A stretch of DNA of 64,000 nt from Candidatus Latescibacterota bacterium (GCA_965205485.1 OZ242180.1:1024001-1088000), one strand, 5' to 3'. Positions 53,691 through 64,000 are shown, counted from the stretch's first letter. Notes: a model not told the origin generated them from the sequence alone. Numbers and translations: made by a program.

Positions 53691-54827
53691 ATGATATTTG
53701 ATTCCCACGCCTATTGTTTCGAGCCGGGGGACGATCCGGCCGGGTTCGAAGACAGCGAGGAGCACATGAAGTGGGTCCAGGAGGCCCAGGGCCTGCACCA
53801 TCAGCCGGCCTGGCGCGTGCGGGACCGGGCGCCGGCGACTTCGGACGGGTTGATCCCGACGGATTACGAGTCCTGGAGCGATCTGCCCGACGTGAACTTT
53901 CGGGTGGACGGTCGGAAGGGGCGGGTGGTCTGGACGATCGACGGGGAGGATTATACGAAACAGTTCTATCCGCCCAATTTGAGGGACCTGGAGTTCACGC
54001 CGCACAGCCTGATCGCGGAGATGGATTACGCGGGCGTGGACATGGCGCTCATCCACACGAACCCGATGCTGACCCGCAACAGCGAATTCCTTGCCGGCTG
54101 CGTGCGTCAGTACCCGGACCGGCTCCGGTCCATGGCGCCCGTGGACGAGTGGCGCATCCGGACCGAGACCGATGCGGTGATTGAGGAACTCCGGACAGCC
54201 ATTCAGGACCATGGACTCCACGCGATCAAGTTCAATGCCCGGCCGGCCTATTTCGGAACCACCGAACCGTGGGACGCGGCGTCCTGCCGGCCGTTCTGGG
54301 ATGCGGCGACCTCGCTTGGCGTGCCGGTTTTCTTTACGCTCGGGTCCGGACCGGGTGACGTGACGCGCCGGATGACGCCGGACGGCGCCCGTCAGGGCTA
54401 CCTGGACGAGCAGAAGGTCCTGGTCCGCTGGATGGAACGCTATCCCGAATCGGTTGTGAATCTGACGCACGGTTTCCCATGGCGCGCATTCGTCTCGGAC
54501 GATCAATTCCAGCCGATGCCGCGGGAGATCTGGCTCCCGTTCGAGAACCCGAACTGCAATCTCGAGGTCTGCTTCCCTGTCCGAATCGGAGACTGGTTCG
54601 ACTTCCCGTACCGGGAGGCGCGGCCGGTGCTGGAGGCCATGGTCGCCAATGTGGGCGCGGACCACCTGAACTGGGGAACGGATATGCCGTTCCAGAACCG
54701 GTTCTGTACGTACCGGCAGTCGAGGCGATGGATCGAGAATTACTGTGCGTTTTTGTGCGCGGACGAGTTGCGAATGATCATGGGGGGAACAACGGCAAGG
54801 ATTCTGGGCGTGGAACCCATAATTTGA
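53691..54827 (+). CDS. Amidohydrolase_2 family protein
   Basis: IFDSHAY, EMDYAGVDMAL, YPDRL, LTHG, VGADHLNWGTDMP, IMGGTTARIL. Confidence 0.82.
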   Translation: MIFDSHAYCFEPGDDPAGFEDSEEHMKWVQEAQGLHHQPAWRVRDRAPATSDGLIPTDYESWSDLPDVNFRVDGRKGRVVWTIDGEDYTKQFYPPNLRDLEFTPHSLIAEMDYAGVDMALIHTNPMLTRNSEFLAGCVRQYPDRLRSMAPVDEWRIRTETDAVIEELRTAIQDHGLHAIKFNARPAYFGTTEPWDAASCRPFWDAATSLGVPVFFTLGSGPGDVTRRMTPDGARQGYLDEQKVLVRWMERYPESVVNLTHGFPWRAFVSDDQFQPMPREIWLPFENPNCNLEVCFPVRIGDWFDFPYREARPVLEAMVANVGADHLNWGTDMPFQNRFCTYRQSRRWIENYCAFLCADELRMIMGGTTARILGVEPII

Positions 54828-54838
54828 GGAATCATCGT

Positions 54839-56695
54839 ATGGTTGAGACTCCACCGGAAGCGGGGATGAACTGGGACCTGTCGAGCTATTTCCCGGCGTT
54901 CAACGGGCCGGAGATGGCGAAGTTCAAGAACGCCCTGGAGAAGGATACGCGGGATTTGCTGGAGTTGGCGAGGGCTCTGGCGCCGCTGGACGAGGGTAAT
55001 GTTGAGACCTGGGAGGATATACTCCTCCGCAGCGAGGACCTGTTCACGCGGCTGCGTCACGTGGCCTCCTACGTGGGATGCTTGACGGCCGCTGACGCGC
55101 GAAACGAGGCCTATCTGAAGGAAGAGGCCGCGTTGACGCTGCAATACGCAGAGGCGACCAAGCTTCAGACGGAACTGCTGCGGGGATTGAAGACGGCGTC
55201 CGACGGCAGCTTCGAGGCGCTCACGCGCCGGGAGTCGCTTTCGGACGCCGGCTATCTGCTGGGGCGCATGCGCCGCGAGGCCCGCTATACCATGGACTCG
55301 GCGCGCGAGGCGCTGGCGGCCGACCTGAGGGTGGACGGTATCTCGGCGTGGGGCCGGCTTTACGATACCCTGTCCGGGAAGCTGGAATTCGAAATGCGGT
55401 TCCCCGACGGCCGGGAGGAAAAGGTGCCCATCTCCCAGCGGCGGTCGTTGATGGAAAATCCGGACCGGCAGGTCCGGCGGGCCGCGTTCGAGGGGGGGAA
55501 CGCCGCCTGGGAAAGCGTTGAAGACGTAGCGGCGGCAGCACTGAACGCGATATCCGGCACGCGGCTTACGATGAATCGCTACCGCGAGGTCCCGCATTTT
55601 CTCGAGGTGGCCCTGTTCCAGTCCGCGATTTCGCGGAAGACGCTGGACGCGATGTTCGACGCGATATTCTCCGAAATCGAGGTGGGGCGCCGCATCCAGC
55701 GGTTCAGGGCGAAGACAATGGGCCAGGAAATGGTGGCCTGGTACGATCTTGGCGCCCCGCTGCCCTTTCCCGATGTGTCGCCCATGGATTGGGATGAGGG
55801 GAAGTCCCTGGTACAGGGTGCGTTCGCCACGGCATATCCTGCGCTGGGAAGCTTTACCCAGGATATGTACGACAGGCGATGGATCGACTATGAGCCGCGT
55901 GCGGGAAAACGACCCGGCGGCTTTTGCACGGGATCCCCGATGATCTCCGAGTCACGGATATTCATGACGTACAACCGCACCATGGGCGACGCTTTGACGC
56001 TCGCGCACGAGGCGGGCCACGCGTTTCACAGCCACGTGATGCGCGATCTGCGGCCGTTTGCGAGACATTACCCGATGACGCTGGCGGAGTCCGCCTCGAC
56101 GTTCGCCGAGATGATCCTGGCCGACGGGGTCCTTTCGAACCCGGACGTGGACGACCTGCAGAGAGCGGTTGTCCTCGATTCGGAGGTGGGCCACGGGGGT
56201 ACCTATCTTCTGGATATTCCGGTCCGGTTCGAGTTCGAGAAGGCGCTTTACGAGGAGCGCGGCAACGGTGAGTTGAGCGTTTCTCAGTTGAAGGCGCTGA
56301 TGACGGAGAAGCAGCGCGAAGTACTCGGCGACGTGCTTCAGGAGGGGGAAGAGGACCCCTGGTTCTGGGCATCCAAGCTGCATTTCTACATAACGGGAGT
56401 CACGTTTTACAATTTCCCGTACACGTTCGGCTATCTGTTGAGTCGGGGGCTCTATGCCATGTTCCGGAAGGAGGGGCCGGACTTCCTGCCCCGGTATGAA
56501 AGCTTCCTTCGGTTGACCGGCAGTGACACTGCCGAGAACGTGGCGAGGCGCAGCCTCGGCAGCGACCTCGAAAAATCCGACTTCTGGGTGCAGGCGATCC
56601 GCAGCCTGGAGGAGCCGCTTTCGCGGCTCGAGGCGCTGTCGCCCCGCGTGTTGACCGTGGGGGATGACCAAACATCCTGCGGCGCCGGCGCGTAG
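54839..56695 (+). CDS. pepF: M3 family oligoendopeptidase (PepF-like)
   Basis: WDLSSYFP, GKRPGGFC, TLAHEAGHAFH (HExxH), AESASTFAE, WASKLHFY..FYNFPYTFGYL. Start 54839 or 54867. Confidence 0.92.
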   Translation: MVETPPEAGMNWDLSSYFPAFNGPEMAKFKNALEKDTRDLLELARALAPLDEGNVETWEDILLRSEDLFTRLRHVASYVGCLTAADARNEAYLKEEAALTLQYAEATKLQTELLRGLKTASDGSFEALTRRESLSDAGYLLGRMRREARYTMDSAREALAADLRVDGISAWGRLYDTLSGKLEFEMRFPDGREEKVPISQRRSLMENPDRQVRRAAFEGGNAAWESVEDVAAAALNAISGTRLTMNRYREVPHFLEVALFQSAISRKTLDAMFDAIFSEIEVGRRIQRFRAKTMGQEMVAWYDLGAPLPFPDVSPMDWDEGKSLVQGAFATAYPALGSFTQDMYDRRWIDYEPRAGKRPGGFCTGSPMISESRIFMTYNRTMGDALTLAHEAGHAFHSHVMRDLRPFARHYPMTLAESASTFAEMILADGVLSNPDVDDLQRAVVLDSEVGHGGTYLLDIPVRFEFEKALYEERGNGELSVSQLKALMTEKQREVLGDVLQEGEEDPWFWASKLHFYITGVTFYNFPYTFGYLLSRGLYAMFRKEGPDFLPRYESFLRLTGSDTAENVARRSLGSDLEKSDFWVQAIRSLEEPLSRLEALSPRVLTVGDDQTSCGAGA

Positions 56696-56767
56696 TCGGC
56701 GCCGTCGTTCCGCCGGGACAGATCGCAGGGGAGCGCTGGATATGGGAATAACAGGGAGGAAAAGGAG

Positions 56768-57754
56768 ATGGGCGAGAGCATCCGATGGGGTATCCTGAGC
56801 ACGGGGGCCATTGCGCGGTCTTTCGTGAAAGGCCTGAATGCGGTTCCGGACGCGGAACCGATCGCCGTGGGGTCACGGACCCAGCAGGCTGCCGATGCAT
56901 TCGGGGACGAATTCGGCATTCCTCGACGGCACCCCAGCTACGAGGCCCTGGCGAACGATCCGGACGTGGACGTCATCTACGTTGCAACGCCGCACTCGCT
57001 CCACAGAGAGAACAGTATCCTCTGTCTGCGCGCGGGCAAACCGGTACTGTGCGAGAAGCCGTTTTCGATCAATCGTCCTGAAGCCGCGGAAATCGTCGCG
57101 GCTGCCCGCGAGGAAGGGCTCTTTCTGATGGAGGCCATGTGGACGCGGTTCCTGCCGATCATGTATCAGGTGAGGCAATGGCTTGGCGACGGCGCCATCG
57201 GCGACGTCCGCATGGTTTCCGCGGACTTCGGGTTCGGGTCCCGTCCCGGCACGACGAAGTCCCGCCTTTATGATCCCGCCCTGGGCGGCGGGGCGCTCAT
57301 GGACGTGGGCATCTATTCGCTCTCGTTCGCCTCCATGGTTTACCGCCGCGTTCCGTCGAGGGTGATGAGTATGGGGCATATCGGCGAGCTGGAGGTGGAC
57401 GAACAGGCAGGGATGATGCTCGGATACGACGGGGGAGAGATGGCCATGCTGTTCACGTCCATTCAGTGCGGCACGTCTCACTGGGCGCACATTATGGGTA
57501 CTGAAGGGATCATCCGCATTCATCCGCCGTACTGGCGCGGAACGACCGCGACCCTGGTGCGAGACGGCAAGGAGGAGACCGTCGAACGCACGTATGATGG
57601 AAACGGGTACAACTGCCAGGCGGAAGCGGTCGGCCGTTACCTGCGCGAAGGGAAACTGGAAAGCCAGGAGATCCCGCTGGATGAGACCGTTGACATCATG
57701 GGGACGATGGATACGATCCGCGACCGGATCGGGCTGAAATTCCCGATGGAATGA
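56768..57754 (+). CDS. Gfo/Idh/MocA family oxidoreductase
   Basis: WGILSTGAIA, YVATPHSLH, VLCEKPF, LMEAMWTRF, GGGALMDVGIY. Confidence 0.92.
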   Translation: MGESIRWGILSTGAIARSFVKGLNAVPDAEPIAVGSRTQQAADAFGDEFGIPRRHPSYEALANDPDVDVIYVATPHSLHRENSILCLRAGKPVLCEKPFSINRPEAAEIVAAAREEGLFLMEAMWTRFLPIMYQVRQWLGDGAIGDVRMVSADFGFGSRPGTTKSRLYDPALGGGALMDVGIYSLSFASMVYRRVPSRVMSMGHIGELEVDEQAGMMLGYDGGEMAMLFTSIQCGTSHWAHIMGTEGIIRIHPPYWRGTTATLVRDGKEETVERTYDGNGYNCQAEAVGRYLREGKLESQEIPLDETVDIMGTMDTIRDRIGLKFPME

Positions 57755-57815
57755 TCCCGGGAAGATATTTGGGGACGGCACAGACAAGGATAGAATTCTA
57801 CCCACCCCCAAACGT

Positions 57816-58333
57816 CCCCTATTCCCTTGCCCTTTTTCTTGAAATCGCCCAAGAAAAAGGGCGAAAAAGAAGGGCGCCGCTCGGCGCGGGGCCGGTTTTT
57901 CCGTGAATCACTGCAGGGGCCCTTTCGTCGACCAGGTGACCTTCGCGCACCTGTAGAGTACCAGTATGACAGTGCGAAACGGGTTAACACGGAAAAACCC
58001 CCATCTCCACCACCGGACGGTCCTGAGGTGGAACCTTAACGATCGTCGCTCGGTTCTATCATTTGTACCGTCATTACCTGTCCGCTGATAACTCGCCCTC
58101 AAATGGGCACTCGATTGTCTAACGCGATGCCATTCCAGAGCACTTCCAGAGCAGGGCGCGTTGTTCCGTCCCGCTCGAATTTACGGTATCCTCCAGGGTT
58201 GGCAGGCCAGAGGATCCTGTGCATCCTGAAGGGTGATTCGCGCCATGCATATGGCAGGCCCCGCGCCCAGCGGCGACTTTTGGTTCCTTTTGGTCGCTTC
58301 AAAAGGAACACGCCGTAGGCAGGGAATTTGGGG
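57816..58333. other. Non-coding, highly self-complementary element (MITE-like non-autonomous element or structured RNA)
   Basis: Imperfect terminal inverted repeats, subterminal perfect hairpins (13 bp and 10 bp), an 18/19-bp long-range inverted repeat and several nested internal stems. No credible ORF. Confidence 0.6.
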
Positions 58334-58365
58334 AGATGTGGATTTTGAATTTGGTTCTGATCTTT

Positions 58366-58390
58366 GCTGATGGCTGACGGCTGATAGCTG
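58366..58390 (+). repeat. Short heptamer tandem repeat
   Basis: GCTGATG GCTGACG GCTGATA GCTG. Confidence 0.5.
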
Positions 58391-58448
58391 CTTTCTAACA
58401 TTGCGAAACATACTAATTATAGTATATCATTTTTAATATGGAGCCCCT

Positions 58449-59420
58449 ATGAAATACGGCCGCGTCGAAGGAATCGACAAACCGGTCTCGCGGCTGGTTC
58501 AGGGCACGTTGACGGTCTCGACGGACGATCTCGAGGCGAGCATCGGTCTTCTCGACGGGATTCGGGCGCTGGGCTGCAACAGTTTCGATACCGCACCGGT
58601 ATACGGTAACGGCAAAGCGGAGCGGGCGCTTGGCGCGTGGATGGAACGGCGAGGCAATCGAAGCGATGTATTCATCCTCAGCAAGGGCGGCCATCCCAAC
58701 GCGGACCGGGACCGCCGGGTGACCGTGTTCGACGTCGCCTCCGACCTGTTCGACTCTCTGGCCCGGCTCAGGACGGATTACATCGACCTCTACCTGCTTC
58801 ACCGGGACGATCCCGCGGTGCCGGTCGGGCCCCTCGTCGAGGCGCTCAACGAGCATATGTCCGAAGGACGCATTCACGCCTTTGGAGGGTCCAACTGGTC
58901 GGTGAATCGAATCCGTGAAGCGAACCGGTATGCGAGGAACCACGGCCTGATGCCGTTTGTGGCCAGCAGCCCGAATTTCAGCCTGGCCGTGCGCGTAAAG
59001 GAGGTCTGGGAGGGCTGTCTGAGCATTTCTGGTCCGCGAGGCGCCGGGGAAAGAGCGTGGTACCGGGAGTCGCAGATGCCCGTGTTTTCCTGGTCCAGCC
59101 TGGCACAGGGTTTTTTCTCCGGTCTCCTGACGCGCGAAAACATTGCCGGGATGGCGAAGGAAACGACGCACGGTTGTGTGCAGGTCTATGGGTACGAGGA
59201 GAACTTCACACGGCTGGAACGCGCGACCGAACTCGCCGGCGAGCGCGGAAAGACCGTGGCGCAGATCGCGCTGGCGTATCTCTTCAACCAGCCCCTGAAC
59301 GTCTTTACGGTGTCGGGCTGCAGGTCGGTCGAAGAAGGCCGCCTGAACCGGGAGGCGATGGATATCCGGCTGACGCCGGATGAACTGGATTGGCTGGACC
59401 TGCGGCAGGGGAGCCGGTGA
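58449..59420 (+). CDS. Aldo/keto reductase
   Basis: FDTAPVYG (catalytic D/Y), ILSKG, SLARLRTDYIDLYLLHRDD, GGSNW, WSSLAQG, AQIALAY. Confidence 0.93.
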   Translation: MKYGRVEGIDKPVSRLVQGTLTVSTDDLEASIGLLDGIRALGCNSFDTAPVYGNGKAERALGAWMERRGNRSDVFILSKGGHPNADRDRRVTVFDVASDLFDSLARLRTDYIDLYLLHRDDPAVPVGPLVEALNEHMSEGRIHAFGGSNWSVNRIREANRYARNHGLMPFVASSPNFSLAVRVKEVWEGCLSISGPRGAGERAWYRESQMPVFSWSSLAQGFFSGLLTRENIAGMAKETTHGCVQVYGYEENFTRLERATELAGERGKTVAQIALAYLFNQPLNVFTVSGCRSVEEGRLNREAMDIRLTPDELDWLDLRQGSR

Positions 59421-59574
59421 CGGATAACCTGCAACCGGAAACCGGTTTATTCGTCTAAACCCCCGGGATCGTTTTCGTGACGAAAGGCCGGCGGGGCGAT
59501 GGAGTATCCCTGCCTGTCTCACCGGGCGATACCGTGGCGATTCGCATAAACGCGTCTCATTCAACGCTTTGGGC

Positions 59575-59603
59575 TTGACTCGAATGCGCATTAGGACTAA
59601 ATA
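59575..59603 (+). promoter_or_regulatory. Possible sigma70 promoter for the REC-GDH/kinase operon
   Basis: TTGACT-N17-TAAATA, about 55 bp upstream of the ATG. Confidence 0.3.
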
Positions 59604-59656
59604 TCCGATGTACGCCCTCGCTCCTTGGAATCGCGCCATGCGCGGACGATATAACT

Positions 59657-61306
59657 ATGCCAGGCACAAACCTGAAAACGTTGTTGATTGAGGACAATCC
59701 GCTTCACAGCCGACTGATTCAGGAACTGCTTGCGGAATCCGAAGGCCCGGAATTCGAGGTGGATTCGGCGGGTACGCTCGCGGAAGGGCTGAACCGGCTG
59801 GCAGCGGACGGGTACGAATTGCTGCTGCTGGACCTGGTACTGCCGGACAGCGAGGACCTGGAGACATATCTTCGCGTGCGGGCCGCCTATCCGGAACTGA
59901 CCGTTGTGATCCTCTCCGGAATGGAGGACATCAAACTGGCGGCGCGGGCGGTTGAGGCGGGAGCGCAGGACTATCTGGTGAAAGCCCAATTGGACGGCCC
60001 ACTCCTGGTGAGGTCGATCCGTTACGCCGTGGAACGCAGCCGGGCGCAGCACGCCGAGTGGGAGTCGCCGATGTTCCGCCTGGCGCAGCAGCAGTTCCTG
60101 AAGGCTGCGCACCTGATGGAACTGGACGACAATATCCGGCAGCGTCTTCTGTTTCCGCAGAGAACTCACGTGGTCACCTTTCCGTTCCGGCGGGACGAGC
60201 ACGAATACGTGGAGACGGTTGCCGGCTACCGGATTCAACATCTGCTGACGATGGGGCCCACGAAGGGCGGCGTGCGCTACCATCACGACGTGAACCTTGG
60301 TGAAGTAACCGCCCTGGCCATGTGGATGACCTGGAAGTGCGCCCTGATGAACCTCCCGTTCGGCGGCGCTAAGGGCGGCGTTCGTATCGATCCAACCGTC
60401 CTCTCGCGCCGCGAACTCCAGCGCCTGACGCGCCGGTATACGTCGGAAATCATAGACGTTATCGGACCGCAGAAGGACATCCCGGCGCCGGACATGGGCA
60501 CGGACGAAAACGTGATGGCGTGGATGATGGACACCTACAGCCATCAGATGGGACATACCGTGCCTGCGGTCGTAACCGGCAAGCCGGTGGTGCTTGGGGG
60601 CTCCGAGGGACGCCGTGAAGCGACCGGACGGGGACTGGTGTATCTGGTCGAAGAGGCGGCCAGACACATTGGGATGGACTTGAACGGCGCGACCGCCGTC
60701 GTTCAGGGGTTCGGAAACGTGGGAAGCAGCGCGGCGAGATTCCTCGAGGCCTGTGGGGTCAGGGTGGTTGGCGTAAGCGACGTGACCACCGGCATTTACA
60801 ATCCCGACGGTCTGAACGTGGACTCGCTGTCGCGTCACGTGGACGAGAGCCGGGTCCTAGAAGGTTACGAAGGCGGGGACGCCGTGACCAACCGGGAGTT
60901 GCTGGAAATTCCCTGCGACGTCCTCGTTCCCGCGGCAATACAGAATCAGATCAACGCCGACAATGCAGATCGGATCTCGTGCAGAATCCTGGCCGAGGGC
61001 GCCAATGGGCCGACAACGCTTGAAGCGGATGAGATCCTGCAGGACAAAGAGGTGTTTATTCTGCCTGATGTACTCGGCAATGCCGGAGGGGTTACGGTTT
61101 CCTATTTCGAGTGGGTTCAGGACACGCAGAACTATGTGTGGACCCTCGAGGAGATCAATGATCGCCTCAGGCAGATTCTGCTCAACGCGTTCCTTAGAAC
61201 CATTCAACGGTCCGAACGCGATGGACTGGATATACGCACGGCAGCGCTGATCGAAGGAATTCACCGCGTAACTCAGGCGAAACTCCTGAGGGGCTTGTTT
61301 CCATAG
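59657..61306 (+). CDS. gdhA: Response-regulator receiver domain fused to glutamate dehydrogenase (Glu/Leu/Phe/Val DH family)
   Basis: aa 1-~128 REC: LIEDN, LLLDLVLPD, VILSG, GAQDYLVK. Remainder: GYRIQH..GPTKGGVRY, MTWKCAL..LPFGGAKGG, DIPAPDMGT, VTGKP..GGS.GR.EATGRG, QGFGNVG, EGANGP, NAGGVTVSYFEWVQ. Confidence 0.92.
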   Translation: MPGTNLKTLLIEDNPLHSRLIQELLAESEGPEFEVDSAGTLAEGLNRLAADGYELLLLDLVLPDSEDLETYLRVRAAYPELTVVILSGMEDIKLAARAVEAGAQDYLVKAQLDGPLLVRSIRYAVERSRAQHAEWESPMFRLAQQQFLKAAHLMELDDNIRQRLLFPQRTHVVTFPFRRDEHEYVETVAGYRIQHLLTMGPTKGGVRYHHDVNLGEVTALAMWMTWKCALMNLPFGGAKGGVRIDPTVLSRRELQRLTRRYTSEIIDVIGPQKDIPAPDMGTDENVMAWMMDTYSHQMGHTVPAVVTGKPVVLGGSEGRREATGRGLVYLVEEAARHIGMDLNGATAVVQGFGNVGSSAARFLEACGVRVVGVSDVTTGIYNPDGLNVDSLSRHVDESRVLEGYEGGDAVTNRELLEIPCDVLVPAAIQNQINADNADRISCRILAEGANGPTTLEADEILQDKEVFILPDVLGNAGGVTVSYFEWVQDTQNYVWTLEEINDRLRQILLNAFLRTIQRSERDGLDIRTAALIEGIHRVTQAKLLRGLFP

Positions 61307-61318
61307 GGTGCAATTGAA

Positions 61319-64000
61319 ATGGACGATTACGCAGACCCGCGTCTGGTGCGGATCGCCGCGATGGCCGCGCAAACGGCGAACCTGATCGTGGTCATGCTGT
61401 CTATTGTGGTATTTGCGGGATGGCTGGTCAGCGCACCCGTGGCCGAATGGATGTCTTTGTTGACGGCGGGCATGTTCGTGCTTACCGGCGTGGCGCTGTG
61501 GCTGCTGCGCAGCGGCAGGTCATCCGCGCGCAGGCAGTTCCTGGGGAAGGCAATCGGCGCGGTCGTCGTGGTCTTCGCGATCCTGGAACTCCTGGGCGCG
61601 GGACCCGTGTTTATCGGTTTCGGCGCGGGCGCCGGGCACATGCTGCGGAATGAAGCGTGTAACTTCGCGCTGATCGGCCTGGCGCTGCTTCTCTGGCATT
61701 TCAGGGTGCGGGGCGTCGCCTGGCCGGCGCAGACGTGTCTGTCTATCGCCTCGATCGTATCGTGCGGATATGCGGTCGGTCATTTCTACCTCACGCTGTC
61801 ACCGCGAGAAGTGACGTGGGACCTTCAAATGAGCGCCGTGACAACGCTCACCTTCGGGCTGTTGTGCATTGGCGTGTTTCTGTCCCGGCCGGACCTTGAA
61901 CCGACGACCACCATTGTCAGTTCGACGGCCGGCGGCTCGATGGCGCGCCGGCTGCTGCCGGCCGCTTTCCTGATTCCGCTCGCGCTGGGCTGGCTCTGGC
62001 CTCACGGGGAAGTGATACTGGGGTTCGAGTCCGGGATGTCGCTGTTCTCTCTGGGTGTAATCGTCGCGCTGAATATCCTGATCTGGTGGTACGCCCGGTC
62101 TCTCGCGTTTCTGGACTCCGAACGGCAGCGTTCGGAAACGGCGCTGCGTGAGAGTGAGGCCCGCCTCAAACTGGCTATGGAAGCCGCCCATATGGGGAGC
62201 TGGGACTCCAATTTACTGACCGGGGAACTGGTGTGGTCGGATCTGGTGGCGCCGCTGTTCGGCCTGAAACCCGAAGAATTCGCAGGCACGCGCGAGGCGT
62301 TCTATGAGCTCGTGCATCCCGAAGACCGGGAGATGGTCCGAAGCTCTGTGCGGCGCACGATTAAGGAAGGGGTGGGCTTTGAAGTCGAGCATCGGGTGGT
62401 CTGGCCGGACGGGAAGATACGATGGCTCGGCAACAAGGGTCGCATTTTCGGCGACAGGGCGGGGCAGTCCGTACATATGATTGGCACGGTACGGGACATC
62501 ACCCTGCGCAAGCGCGCTGAGATACAGCTTCAGGAAAAGAACCGGCAACTCGAAAACACGGCAGCCGCCGAACGTGAAGCGAACGAAGCGCTGAAGAAGA
62601 GCACCGTCGCACTGGAGCGTTCGGGCGCGGAACTGCAGAAAGCAAAAGACACCGCGGAAAAGGCGAATCGCGCAAAGAGCGAGTTTCTCGCCAATATGAG
62701 CCACGAGATCCGCACGCCGATGAACGGCATCATGGGCATGACGGAGTTGCTGGGCAACACGGAGCTGACGCCCCAACAGCGGGAGTATCTCAAGTTGAGC
62801 AGGCAGTCATCCGAAGCGCTGCTGGCGCTCCTAAACGATATCCTCGACTTTTCCAAGCTGGAAGTGAACAGGCTGGACCTGGAAGCCATCGGCTTCGACC
62901 TCCGGGATACGCTGGGGGATACCGTGCAGACCCTCGCGGTCAAGGCCACGCAGAAGGGGCTGGAGCTGGCGTGCCATATCGCTCCTGACGTTCCGGACCG
63001 GCTGGTTGGCGATCCCGGCCGTCTGAGGCAGATCGTGATCAATCTTGTGGACAATGCCATCAAGTTCACGGCGAAGGGCGACGTACTTGTTGACGTGAAA
63101 GTGGACGCCAGGGAGGAAGACACCTTACGTCTGAGGTTCTTTGTACGGGACACGGGAATCGGCATCGCACCCGAAGATCAGCAACCGATATTCGACTCCT
63201 TCAGCCAGGTCGACTCCTCCACTTCGAGGAGGTTCGGCGGCACGGGGCTGGGCCTGGCGATTTCATCTCAACTCGCCGCGATGATGGGCGGACGGATGTG
63301 GGTGGAAAGCGAACTGAGCAAGGGTAGTACGTTCTGTTTCACCGCGGTATTCGAAGCGCAGCCCCCGTTGGCGAAGCGGTCGGCGGCCGACCTGCAGACC
63401 CTCGTGGGTCTTCGCGCGCTGGTGGTGGACAACAACCGAACAAACCGGTTCATATTCGAGGAGATGCTGGGAACCTGGGGCATGGAGATTGATGTTGCGG
63501 ACTCGGGCCCGGCCGCGCTCGATGCGCTTCGGAAGGCCGGCGAAGCGGATAAGCCGTTCAACCTGTTTCTGCTGGATGCGGTGATGCCGGATATGGACGG
63601 GTTCGCGCTGGCGGAGCGCCTCAGGGAGGACCCCTCGGCGACGGCCGTGCCGATACTGATTCTCTCGTCGGCGGGAAGAACGCACGACGCCGTGCGATGC
63701 GACGCATTGGGGCTTGCCCGGTGTCTGACGAAGCCGGTCAAGCAGTCCGACCTGCTCGATGCCACGCTGGAAGCCCTGCAGGTGAGTGTTGTCCAAACCG
63801 TGGACGTTCCCGGAATACTGGAACCTGTACCGCCTGCCAACCGGCGTCGCGTCCTGTTGGCGGAGGACGGCCTCGTCAACCGGAAAGTAATCGTGGACCT
63901 GCTAGAGCCGCGCGGCCACCAGGTTACATCCGTCAACAATGGCAAGGAAGTGCTGGCGGCGCTGGAGAACGACGCATTCGATCTGATTCTCATGGACGTC
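61319..64000 (+). CDS. Membrane-bound hybrid sensor histidine kinase (multi-TM, PAS/PAC, HisKA, HATPase, REC, second REC); runs off the window edge
   Basis: Not in the ORF track because it has no stop in the window. My translation from ATG 61319 gives several TM helices, [31 protein letters not shown] (PAS), [60 protein letters not shown] ([14 protein letters not shown]) and a second REC (LLAEDG..DLILMDV). Confidence 0.93.

Follow-up and report, generated by a model that had tools for sequence, protein, structure and literature searches.

Glutamate dehydrogenase (GDH) acts at the carbon/nitrogen branch point, and the locus described here raises the question of whether such an enzyme can serve as the direct output of a two-component pathway. 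The window, which is the whole stretch of 64,000 nucleotides analysed, carried on its plus strand a gene (59657..61306) in which a phospho-receiver (REC) domain was joined to a GDH. In the following, G-numbers refer to genomes (G000 being the source genome), L-numbers to loci, P-numbers to proteins, and X-numbers to sequencing runs. The REC-GDH gene was a single open reading frame (ORF) of 549 amino acids, and its product was the sole ELFV-family GDH found in G000. Pfam placed Response_reg at residues 9-110 (E 2.4e-15), ELFV_dehydrog_N at residues 167-296, and ELFV_dehydrog at residues 314-546. The ORF call and the domain matches thus bore out the earlier note, which had described one continuous frame joining a receiver to a full GDH.

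The receiver (59681..59986, +) contained the acidic pocket E12/D13 in IEDN (residues 11-14), the phosphoacceptor D59 (codon 59831-59833) in LLDL (57-60), S87 in ILSG (85-88), and K109 in YLVK (106-109). The PF00072 score was above the cut-off, and all REC phosphorylation residues were present together with the alpha/beta topology in the model, as in response regulators; databases also label some family members 'response regulator'. The receiver was followed by an extended alpha5 plus linker (residues 114-137; 59996..60067, +), a predicted helix that breaks at E134-S137 and whose last part, residues 125-137, reads VERSRAQHAEWES. The N-terminal helices and first strands of the GDH (residues 138-199; 60068..60253, +) overlapped domain I (ELFV_dehydrog_N; 60155..60544, +), which held K203, K227, K239, and D279. 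The coenzyme domain (60596..61294, +) contained GFGNVG (351-356), SDV (374-376), and S482. The GDH motifs GPTKGG, MTWK, GGAKGG, PAPD, GFGNVG, and GGVTVS began at residues 200, 224, 236, 276, 351, and 477, respectively, so every receiver and GDH motif named in the earlier note was located in the translation. K239 and D279 corresponded by motif to Lys102 and Asp142 of AtGDH1. K203, K227, and S482, which we take to be the glutamate-specificity residues of the pocket, were common to REC-GDH and the Thermotoga maritima GDH. The NCBIfam GDH equivalogs all scored below their curated cut-offs: GdhB_Halo at 497.8 (cut-off 620), GdhA_Arch at 478.7 (750), and PRK09414 at 271 (536). An antisense ORF of 413 aa was observed opposite the GDH (59597-60838, −); such shadow frames, also seen in relatives, are probably an effect of codon bias.

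The junction between the two halves was compared with contigs from four sequencing runs and was bridged by those of two. A contig of run X4 covered 59400-60339 with no differences, and a contig of run X5, a sponge metagenome from another study, covered 59454-62000 with 96 substitutions and no gaps. The pieces listed for X1 and X6 fell short of the junction. Moreover, a search of 14 further congeneric genomes gave an open match of 549 codons in every one. Misassembly or a frameshift at the junction, for which a check of the reads had been proposed, was therefore ruled out by independent contigs and congeneric genomes. The fusion is confirmed as real.

An AlphaFold2 model was built from a 70-row alignment (mean pLDDT 91.2, pTM 0.79). 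It contained an alpha5/linker helix at residues 114-133, a break at 134-137, and the first GDH helix at 138-153, so the short helical linker claimed earlier was reproduced as a predicted helix; the pLDDT of the linker was 74-82. The GDH half shared about 52% identity with T. maritima GDH 1b26, with a TM-score of 0.93 over about 410 residues (E 1.5e-137). The catalytic Lys/Asp motifs were the same as those of hexameric GDHs of about 45 kDa, namely 1b26, Thermus thermophilus GdhB (3aog), Bacillus subtilis GudB/RocG, and Arabidopsis GDH1 (AtGDH1; 6yeh/6yei). No structure covering both receiver and GDH was found among the best 60 PDB sequence matches or the best 50 Foldseek matches.

The coenzyme motifs of REC-GDH were GFGNVG and SDV, and Ser at position 376 was found in none of the 119 filled rows of relatives. 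AtGDH1, an NAD-specific enzyme, has GFGNVG and SDI, and NADP enzymes have SDS (PMC7326016). REC-GDH shares the NAD-type fingerprint with AtGDH1, and is likely NAD-dependent and hence likely catabolic as judged from these motifs. The coenzyme fingerprints of GDHs have many exceptions (PMC12364357), so the NAD preference is a prediction. As for the metabolic setting, a tblastn search of G000 (97% complete) with the GDH half matched only REC-GDH itself, and no large NAD-GDH (PF05088) was found in that genome. Each of the 15 genomes of the genus gave a single match at E 1e-30, namely REC-GDH. Glutamine synthetase (GS) and GltB were present in G000. Since the window copy was the only GDH found in its genome, its catalysis is probably needed.

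The gene after REC-GDH encoded an unorthodox hybrid kinase of 1,090 aa, which started 12 bases after the GDH stop (61319..64000, +) and ran past the window to G000 1088591. Its layout was a membrane domain, PAS, HisKA (H462), HATPase, REC1 (D753), REC2 (D893), and Hpt (H1030), the last lying beyond the window edge. The motifs SHEIRTP, FLLD, ILMD, and AHTLKG were present, as expected of an unorthodox (tripartite) sensor kinase. The best NCBIfam matches were TorS, BarA, and ArcB, none of which reached its cut-off. These three kinases have the same HisKA-HATPase-REC-Hpt core, whereas the partner kinase has two tandem receivers and its terminal regulator is likely an enzyme instead of a transcription factor. 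The membrane sensor domain (61373..62086, +) was multi-pass, with at least five hydrophobic segments by hydropathy. It had no Pfam match, and its nearest ESM Atlas cluster was unnamed (score 0.96). The same membrane domain was observed in partner kinases of the own phylum and of the phylum of G044. The partner kinase was the sole PF01627 (Hpt) match in G000, and in G044 the only Hpt likewise lay in the partner kinase of that genome. About four receiver proteins without a nearby kinase were also found in G000, and these orphan regulators could be further targets of the Hpt.

The pairing of fusion and kinase was conserved. The kinase start followed REC-GDH in 15/15 genomes of the genus. In 39 of the 48 loci examined, the fusion had a same-strand kinase or Hpt gene as its neighbour, which lay downstream in 36 cases and upstream in 3. 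At L010, an adjacent CHASE sensor was cut by the contig end, which brings the partner count to 40/48. L003 and L082 were cut short by the ends of their contigs, and in six further loci (L004, L006, L007, L012, L186, and L187) no kinase was found in the sequence examined. For the class of G043, a partner was present in 15 of 19 fused loci; the other four ended at contig edges, one of them duplicating L010. The sensors of the 16 kinases scanned varied (CHASE, GAF/PAS, Cache/HAMP/PAS, REC-REC, or an unnamed membrane domain) around a constant HK-REC-REC-Hpt core. With the sensor domains swapped in this way, the signal differs by lineage. All listed kinase cores had the SHEIRTP H-box, and 36/37 had the Hpt H..KG motif, L179 being unmatched. 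Over 21 loci, among which kin are not independent, the pairwise identity of the fusion was correlated with that of the kinase core (r of 0.91 for the receiver and 0.84 for the GDH), as co-inheritance would give. L177 was left out of this correlation as a long branch, which raised r for the GDH from 0.51 to 0.84.

No third gene of the cassette was conserved across lineages, the widely shared clusters being antisense shadow frames, and no other regulator was conserved in the cassette across loci. The upstream genes at 53691-59420 (+), encoding an amidohydrolase, oligopeptidase F (M3), a Gfo/Idh/MocA oxidoreductase, and an aldo-keto reductase, were kept next to the cassette in the own family only. 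A scan of 59380-59700 for promoters and terminators found nothing. Some variant partners were also observed. The partner was REC-Hpt only at L188:9678-10487 and Hpt only at L259:1769-2233, and in both the kinase core was not adjacent. In L011 and in several loci of the G043 class, the kinase was followed by a frame of its own for the Hpt.

The earlier note had called for an architecture search to obtain the distribution, and the fusion was found in many other genomes of several phyla. It was present in 15/15 genomes of the own genus, 3/7 other genomes of the family, and 0/19 of the order's other family. At the phylum level, it occurred in 22/153 genomes of the own phylum, 31/32 of the phylum of G044, and 3/301 of that of G041 (planctomycete). 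Furthermore, it was found in 11/201 genomes of the family of G042 (Halomonas stenophila) and 2/401 of its order. In the class of G043 (Lujinxingia), 22/113 genomes gave matches, of which 18 were full receiver-to-GDH matches and 4 weaker; the one weaker match checked was a REC-kinase. Nine plasmid records of Sinorhizobium/Ensifer also carried REC-GDH. The distribution across phyla was patchy.

To place the fusion, a tree of 59 GDH halves (33 fused and 26 unfused, subsampled from 130) was calculated with IQ-TREE. All fused GDH halves formed one clade with support of 100/99, within which the receiver-less L008 and L017 were nested. The unfused GDHs of two genomes of the same family grouped with a named Candidatus Latescibacterota GDH (100/100), so the host likely belongs to that phylum, which is a lead and falls short of a classification. 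The simplest reading of this tree and distribution would be one fusion event, followed by sideways spread and later losses. No independent REC-GDH fusions were found among the best 150 representatives, and eight longer GDHs of that list were without a receiver. A search for longer fusions, in which residues 60-240 were compared with proteins of 962-2,745 aa, gave one match among 591 candidates, without a receiver, which is weak evidence of absence. In one representative (P0209), the GDH was fused to a piece of the cytidylyltransferase family (PF01148), which may be an artefact. At L192:6545-8192 (G570), the receiver was split over two frames, by an assembly error or a recent break.

Conservation within the family was examined in the best 120 of 7,989 matches to residues 1-260, a query whose ranking favours fused forms by design. 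In this set, receiver and GDH-N annotations were present in 120/120 and the coenzyme domain as well in 119/120. As for the phospho-site, E12, D13, and K109 were conserved in 120/120 relatives, and D59 and T/S87 each in 119/120. In the catalytic site, K203, K227, K239, and D279 were each present in 120/120, and S482 in 115 of 116 filled rows. The span from K109 to Q146 was 38 residues in 121/121 sequences. It was also 38 in 48 of the 49 rows of the locus alignment, the window copy included; L169 had 39.

In the genus, based on 15 sequences and 105 non-independent pairs, dN/dS was 0.12 for the receiver and 0.032 for GDH domain I, and the alpha5-linker and GDH domain II both had 0.096. Receiver and linker are under purifying selection, as is the GDH coenzyme domain. 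Moreover, 29 positions were conserved in fused GDHs and not in 37 unfused ones, and 15 of these 29 lay within residues 135-199. The segment 138-199, which holds most of the fused-clade-specific residues, is a candidate receiver-coupling surface, and the clade-specific positions of 135-199 could instead be shared by descent.

Copies that had lost one half of the arrangement were also compared. In L006, L007, and L012, which form one planctomycete clade and are kinase-less, D13 and T87 were lost and alpha5 had diverged, and the GDH was intact. In G045, the receiver-decayed copy was the only ELFV protein found. Two receiver-less GDHs of the fused clade (L008:7959-9257 and L017:7896-9254) still began with the linker tail, and no receiver or kinase match was found at these loci. 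That the receiver decays or disappears where the kinase is missing would be expected if it is kept for phosphorylation by this kinase. These events were few in number; the decay belongs to one clade, and the two deletions may be one event. In addition, the orphans L004, L186, and L187 had an intact receiver and no kinase in the sequence examined, which indicates that the link between receiver and kinase is not absolute.

The opposite decay was found as well. When the family was clustered at 50%, the live family formed one cluster, and six more clusters combined an intact receiver with decay of the GDH active site. These six were small, and five of them were single-member 90% clusters. On a receiver-plus-linker tree of 40 rows, the decay needed five changes, at least four of which were forced by well-supported branches. 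The decayed copies kept the receiver residues E-D-D-T-K and the 38-aa spacing. They were full length and in frame, and their linker and N-terminal helices were better kept than the active-site domain. Those of L177-179, L243, L247, and L253 still adjoined a kinase; L249 and L255 lacked only the catalytic D279, and L186 and L187 lacked K239 and had no kinase nearby. In one genome, G722, a live cassette and a decayed one were both present, and a separate kinase accompanied each. P0198, P0210, P0230, P0287, and P0320 were further REC-pseudo-GDHs, again with the receiver intact and the active site decayed. The decayed form of Halomonas (H. salifodinae type, P0122) had 15 members, and its GDH dN/dS of about 0.14-0.21 (3 sequences) indicates that it is still constrained. 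The Halomonas copies had no close active paralogue in their own genomes, only GDHs about 32% identical. The idea that decayed copies join a close unfused paralogue in a heterohexamer was rejected, since no such paralogue was found in the five genomes searched; in G722, the live copy is a fused one. The constraint and the adjacent kinase suggest that the relay persists without catalysis in these copies. As decayed copies keep the receiver, and many also the kinase, catalysis may not be the only output.

An intact receiver on a GDH, placed beside a multi-step kinase in several phyla, makes direct phospho-switching of the enzyme likely, as far as can be read from gene content. REC-GDH would likely be the terminal output of the His-Asp-His-Asp relay of the adjacent kinase. 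The full reading, in which a likely NAD-dependent catabolic GDH, the only one of its genome, is switched by this relay, seems to us fairly probable; the observed fusion, intact residues, adjacent kinase, joint conservation, and single origin are its foundation. In such a scheme, the kinase would autophosphorylate at H462, and the phosphate would pass to one of its receivers, to H1030 of the Hpt, and finally to D59. The enzyme would be a hexamer that prefers NAD+ and runs towards 2-oxoglutarate and ammonium, the ammonium being assimilated by GS/GOGAT. As a putative coupling route, alpha5 would run at fixed length almost directly into the GDH N-terminal helix. In AtGDH1, the N-terminal helix bends between open and closed subunits (PMC7326016). 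Phosphorylation of D59 in REC-GDH would accordingly be predicted to shift domain closure or subunit packing. As to the direction, we narrowly prefer phosphorylation turning the enzyme on by relief of inhibition. Activation is tentatively favoured because a catabolic GDH that was on by default would cycle futilely against GS/GOGAT, and because alpha5 decays in copies that cannot be phosphorylated. The earlier claim that the GDH acts as a two-component output switched by Asp phosphorylation thus gained strong comparative support from the adjacent kinase, the selection on the receiver, and the decay or loss of the receiver where the kinase is missing, but catalysis may not be its only output.

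The pseudo-enzymes could mean that the GDH hexamer is a metabolite-sensing, scaffolding, or trigger module, with the flow of information partly reversed or the output non-catalytic. Glutamate, 2-oxoglutarate, and NAD(H) would then set the phosphate drain of the receiver, or a partner protein would be bound, and enzyme activity would be incidental. At least four independent catalytic losses with the receiver intact and, in L177-179, L243, L247, and L253, the kinase adjacent agree with this explanation, as do the full-length, in-frame copies whose linker and N-terminal helices are better kept than the active-site domain, the Halomonas copies without a close active paralogue, and the two cassettes of G722. 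However, live copies dominate, with catalytic residues in 120/120 of the best matches and decayed clusters small, the cassette has no further conserved regulator, and the window copy, as the only GDH found in its genome, probably has to catalyse; for these reasons we regard the explanation as rather unlikely. A two-way junction, also rather unlikely, would combine both, in that the relay would switch glutamate catabolism and the hexamer would report glutamate, 2-oxoglutarate, or NAD(H) back through the receiver. It would explain the repeated pseudo-enzymes with receiver, linker, and kinase kept and, if true, would define a new class of GDH-fold signalling domain.

Two further explanations leave the enzyme outside phospho-control. 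The receiver might be phosphorylated and yet be a mere phosphate sink or tether, such as a localisation or proteolysis tag, so that the GDH is unregulated and the fusion only ensures co-expression. GDH homologues do work without a receiver, the receiver-less descendants L008 and L017 exist, and the pTM of 0.79 and the linker pLDDT of 74-82 leave the inter-domain geometry unfixed, but the invariant 38-residue spacing and the clade-specific residues in the GDH N-terminal part exceed the needs of a tether and make this improbable. It is highly improbable that the receiver fold serves in allostery or oligomerisation and is not phosphorylated, given that the five phosphorylation residues are near-invariant, that a kinase with Hpt is adjacent, and that these residues decay in one kinase-less lineage. 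Lysine and arginine decarboxylases, with their CheY-like wing domain, provide a precedent for such a role. The P2CS 2009 table places those decarboxylases beside GDH (PMC2716373).

Response regulators with an enzyme as output are a known class, which includes CheB, PleD/WspR, RssB/RsbU-type proteins, REC-thioredoxin reductase, and REC-glycosyltransferase. These proteins have the same plan of an N-terminal phosphorylatable receiver and an enzyme, whereas the output of REC-GDH is a predicted hexameric dehydrogenase of central metabolism, fed by a conserved adjacent unorthodox four-step kinase. Bacterial GDHs are controlled by GarA/PknG, KidO-GdhZ, the GudB-GltAB counter-enzyme complex (7mfm), and the Thermus GdhA/GdhB heterohexamer (3aoe), all of them likewise post-translational. 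To our knowledge, the post-translational controls of bacterial GDH use partner proteins or ligands. In contrast, the control of REC-GDH would be in cis and by Asp phosphorylation from a sensor kinase, instead of by a partner, Thr phosphorylation, or a ligand. The catalytically decayed REC-GDH copies recall a regulatory GDH subunit.

The bare architecture had been noticed before. Many bacterial receivers are attached to standard metabolic enzymes (PMC5847659), and Table 1 of P2CS 2009 gives the occurrence of glutamate dehydrogenase (EC 1.4.1.3) in two-component proteins as 'probable' (PMC2716373). The novelty suggested earlier therefore stood in part: no characterisation was found in the literature searched, but the combination was already listed in that table. 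The literature search found no study of the REC-GDH fusion, its kinase partner, or the decayed forms, and Galperin's 2006, 2007, and 2010 papers may list the architecture. Nor did it find a publication on the conserved cassette with an unorthodox kinase, on the single origin, or on the recurrent pseudo-enzymes.

If the preferred reading of a phospho-switched GDH is true, an outside signal could act directly on glutamate flux through a two-gene cassette with exchangeable sensors that moved among several phyla, and REC-GDH would reveal the way in which a hexameric enzyme is controlled by a receiver. Copies with a decayed receiver, without a receiver, or with a decayed catalytic site are natural controls within the family. 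The reading is testable now, as cultured and partly tractable hosts carry the cassette; the cultured carriers included Sinorhizobium fredii NGR234 (REC-GDH accession ACP22908.1) and HH103, Ensifer adhaerens, Halomonas, Zobellella, Ruegeria, Leisingera, and Gimesia maris. A partner kinase was present in both of the rhizobial plasmid regions examined. On the plasmid of S. fredii NXT3 (L215:9796-12643), the partner kinase was annotated as two CDS, a PAS part and a kinase part. Methylaspartate genes lay beside the cassette only at L214 among the loci examined, and none were found in G000. At this locus (L214:1-7275; Ensifer adhaerens plasmid NZ_CP118612.1), the cassette directly followed a glutamate-catabolism cluster of methylaspartate mutase E, methylaspartate ammonia-lyase, CoA-transferase, CoA ester lyase, LysR, and fumarate hydratase.
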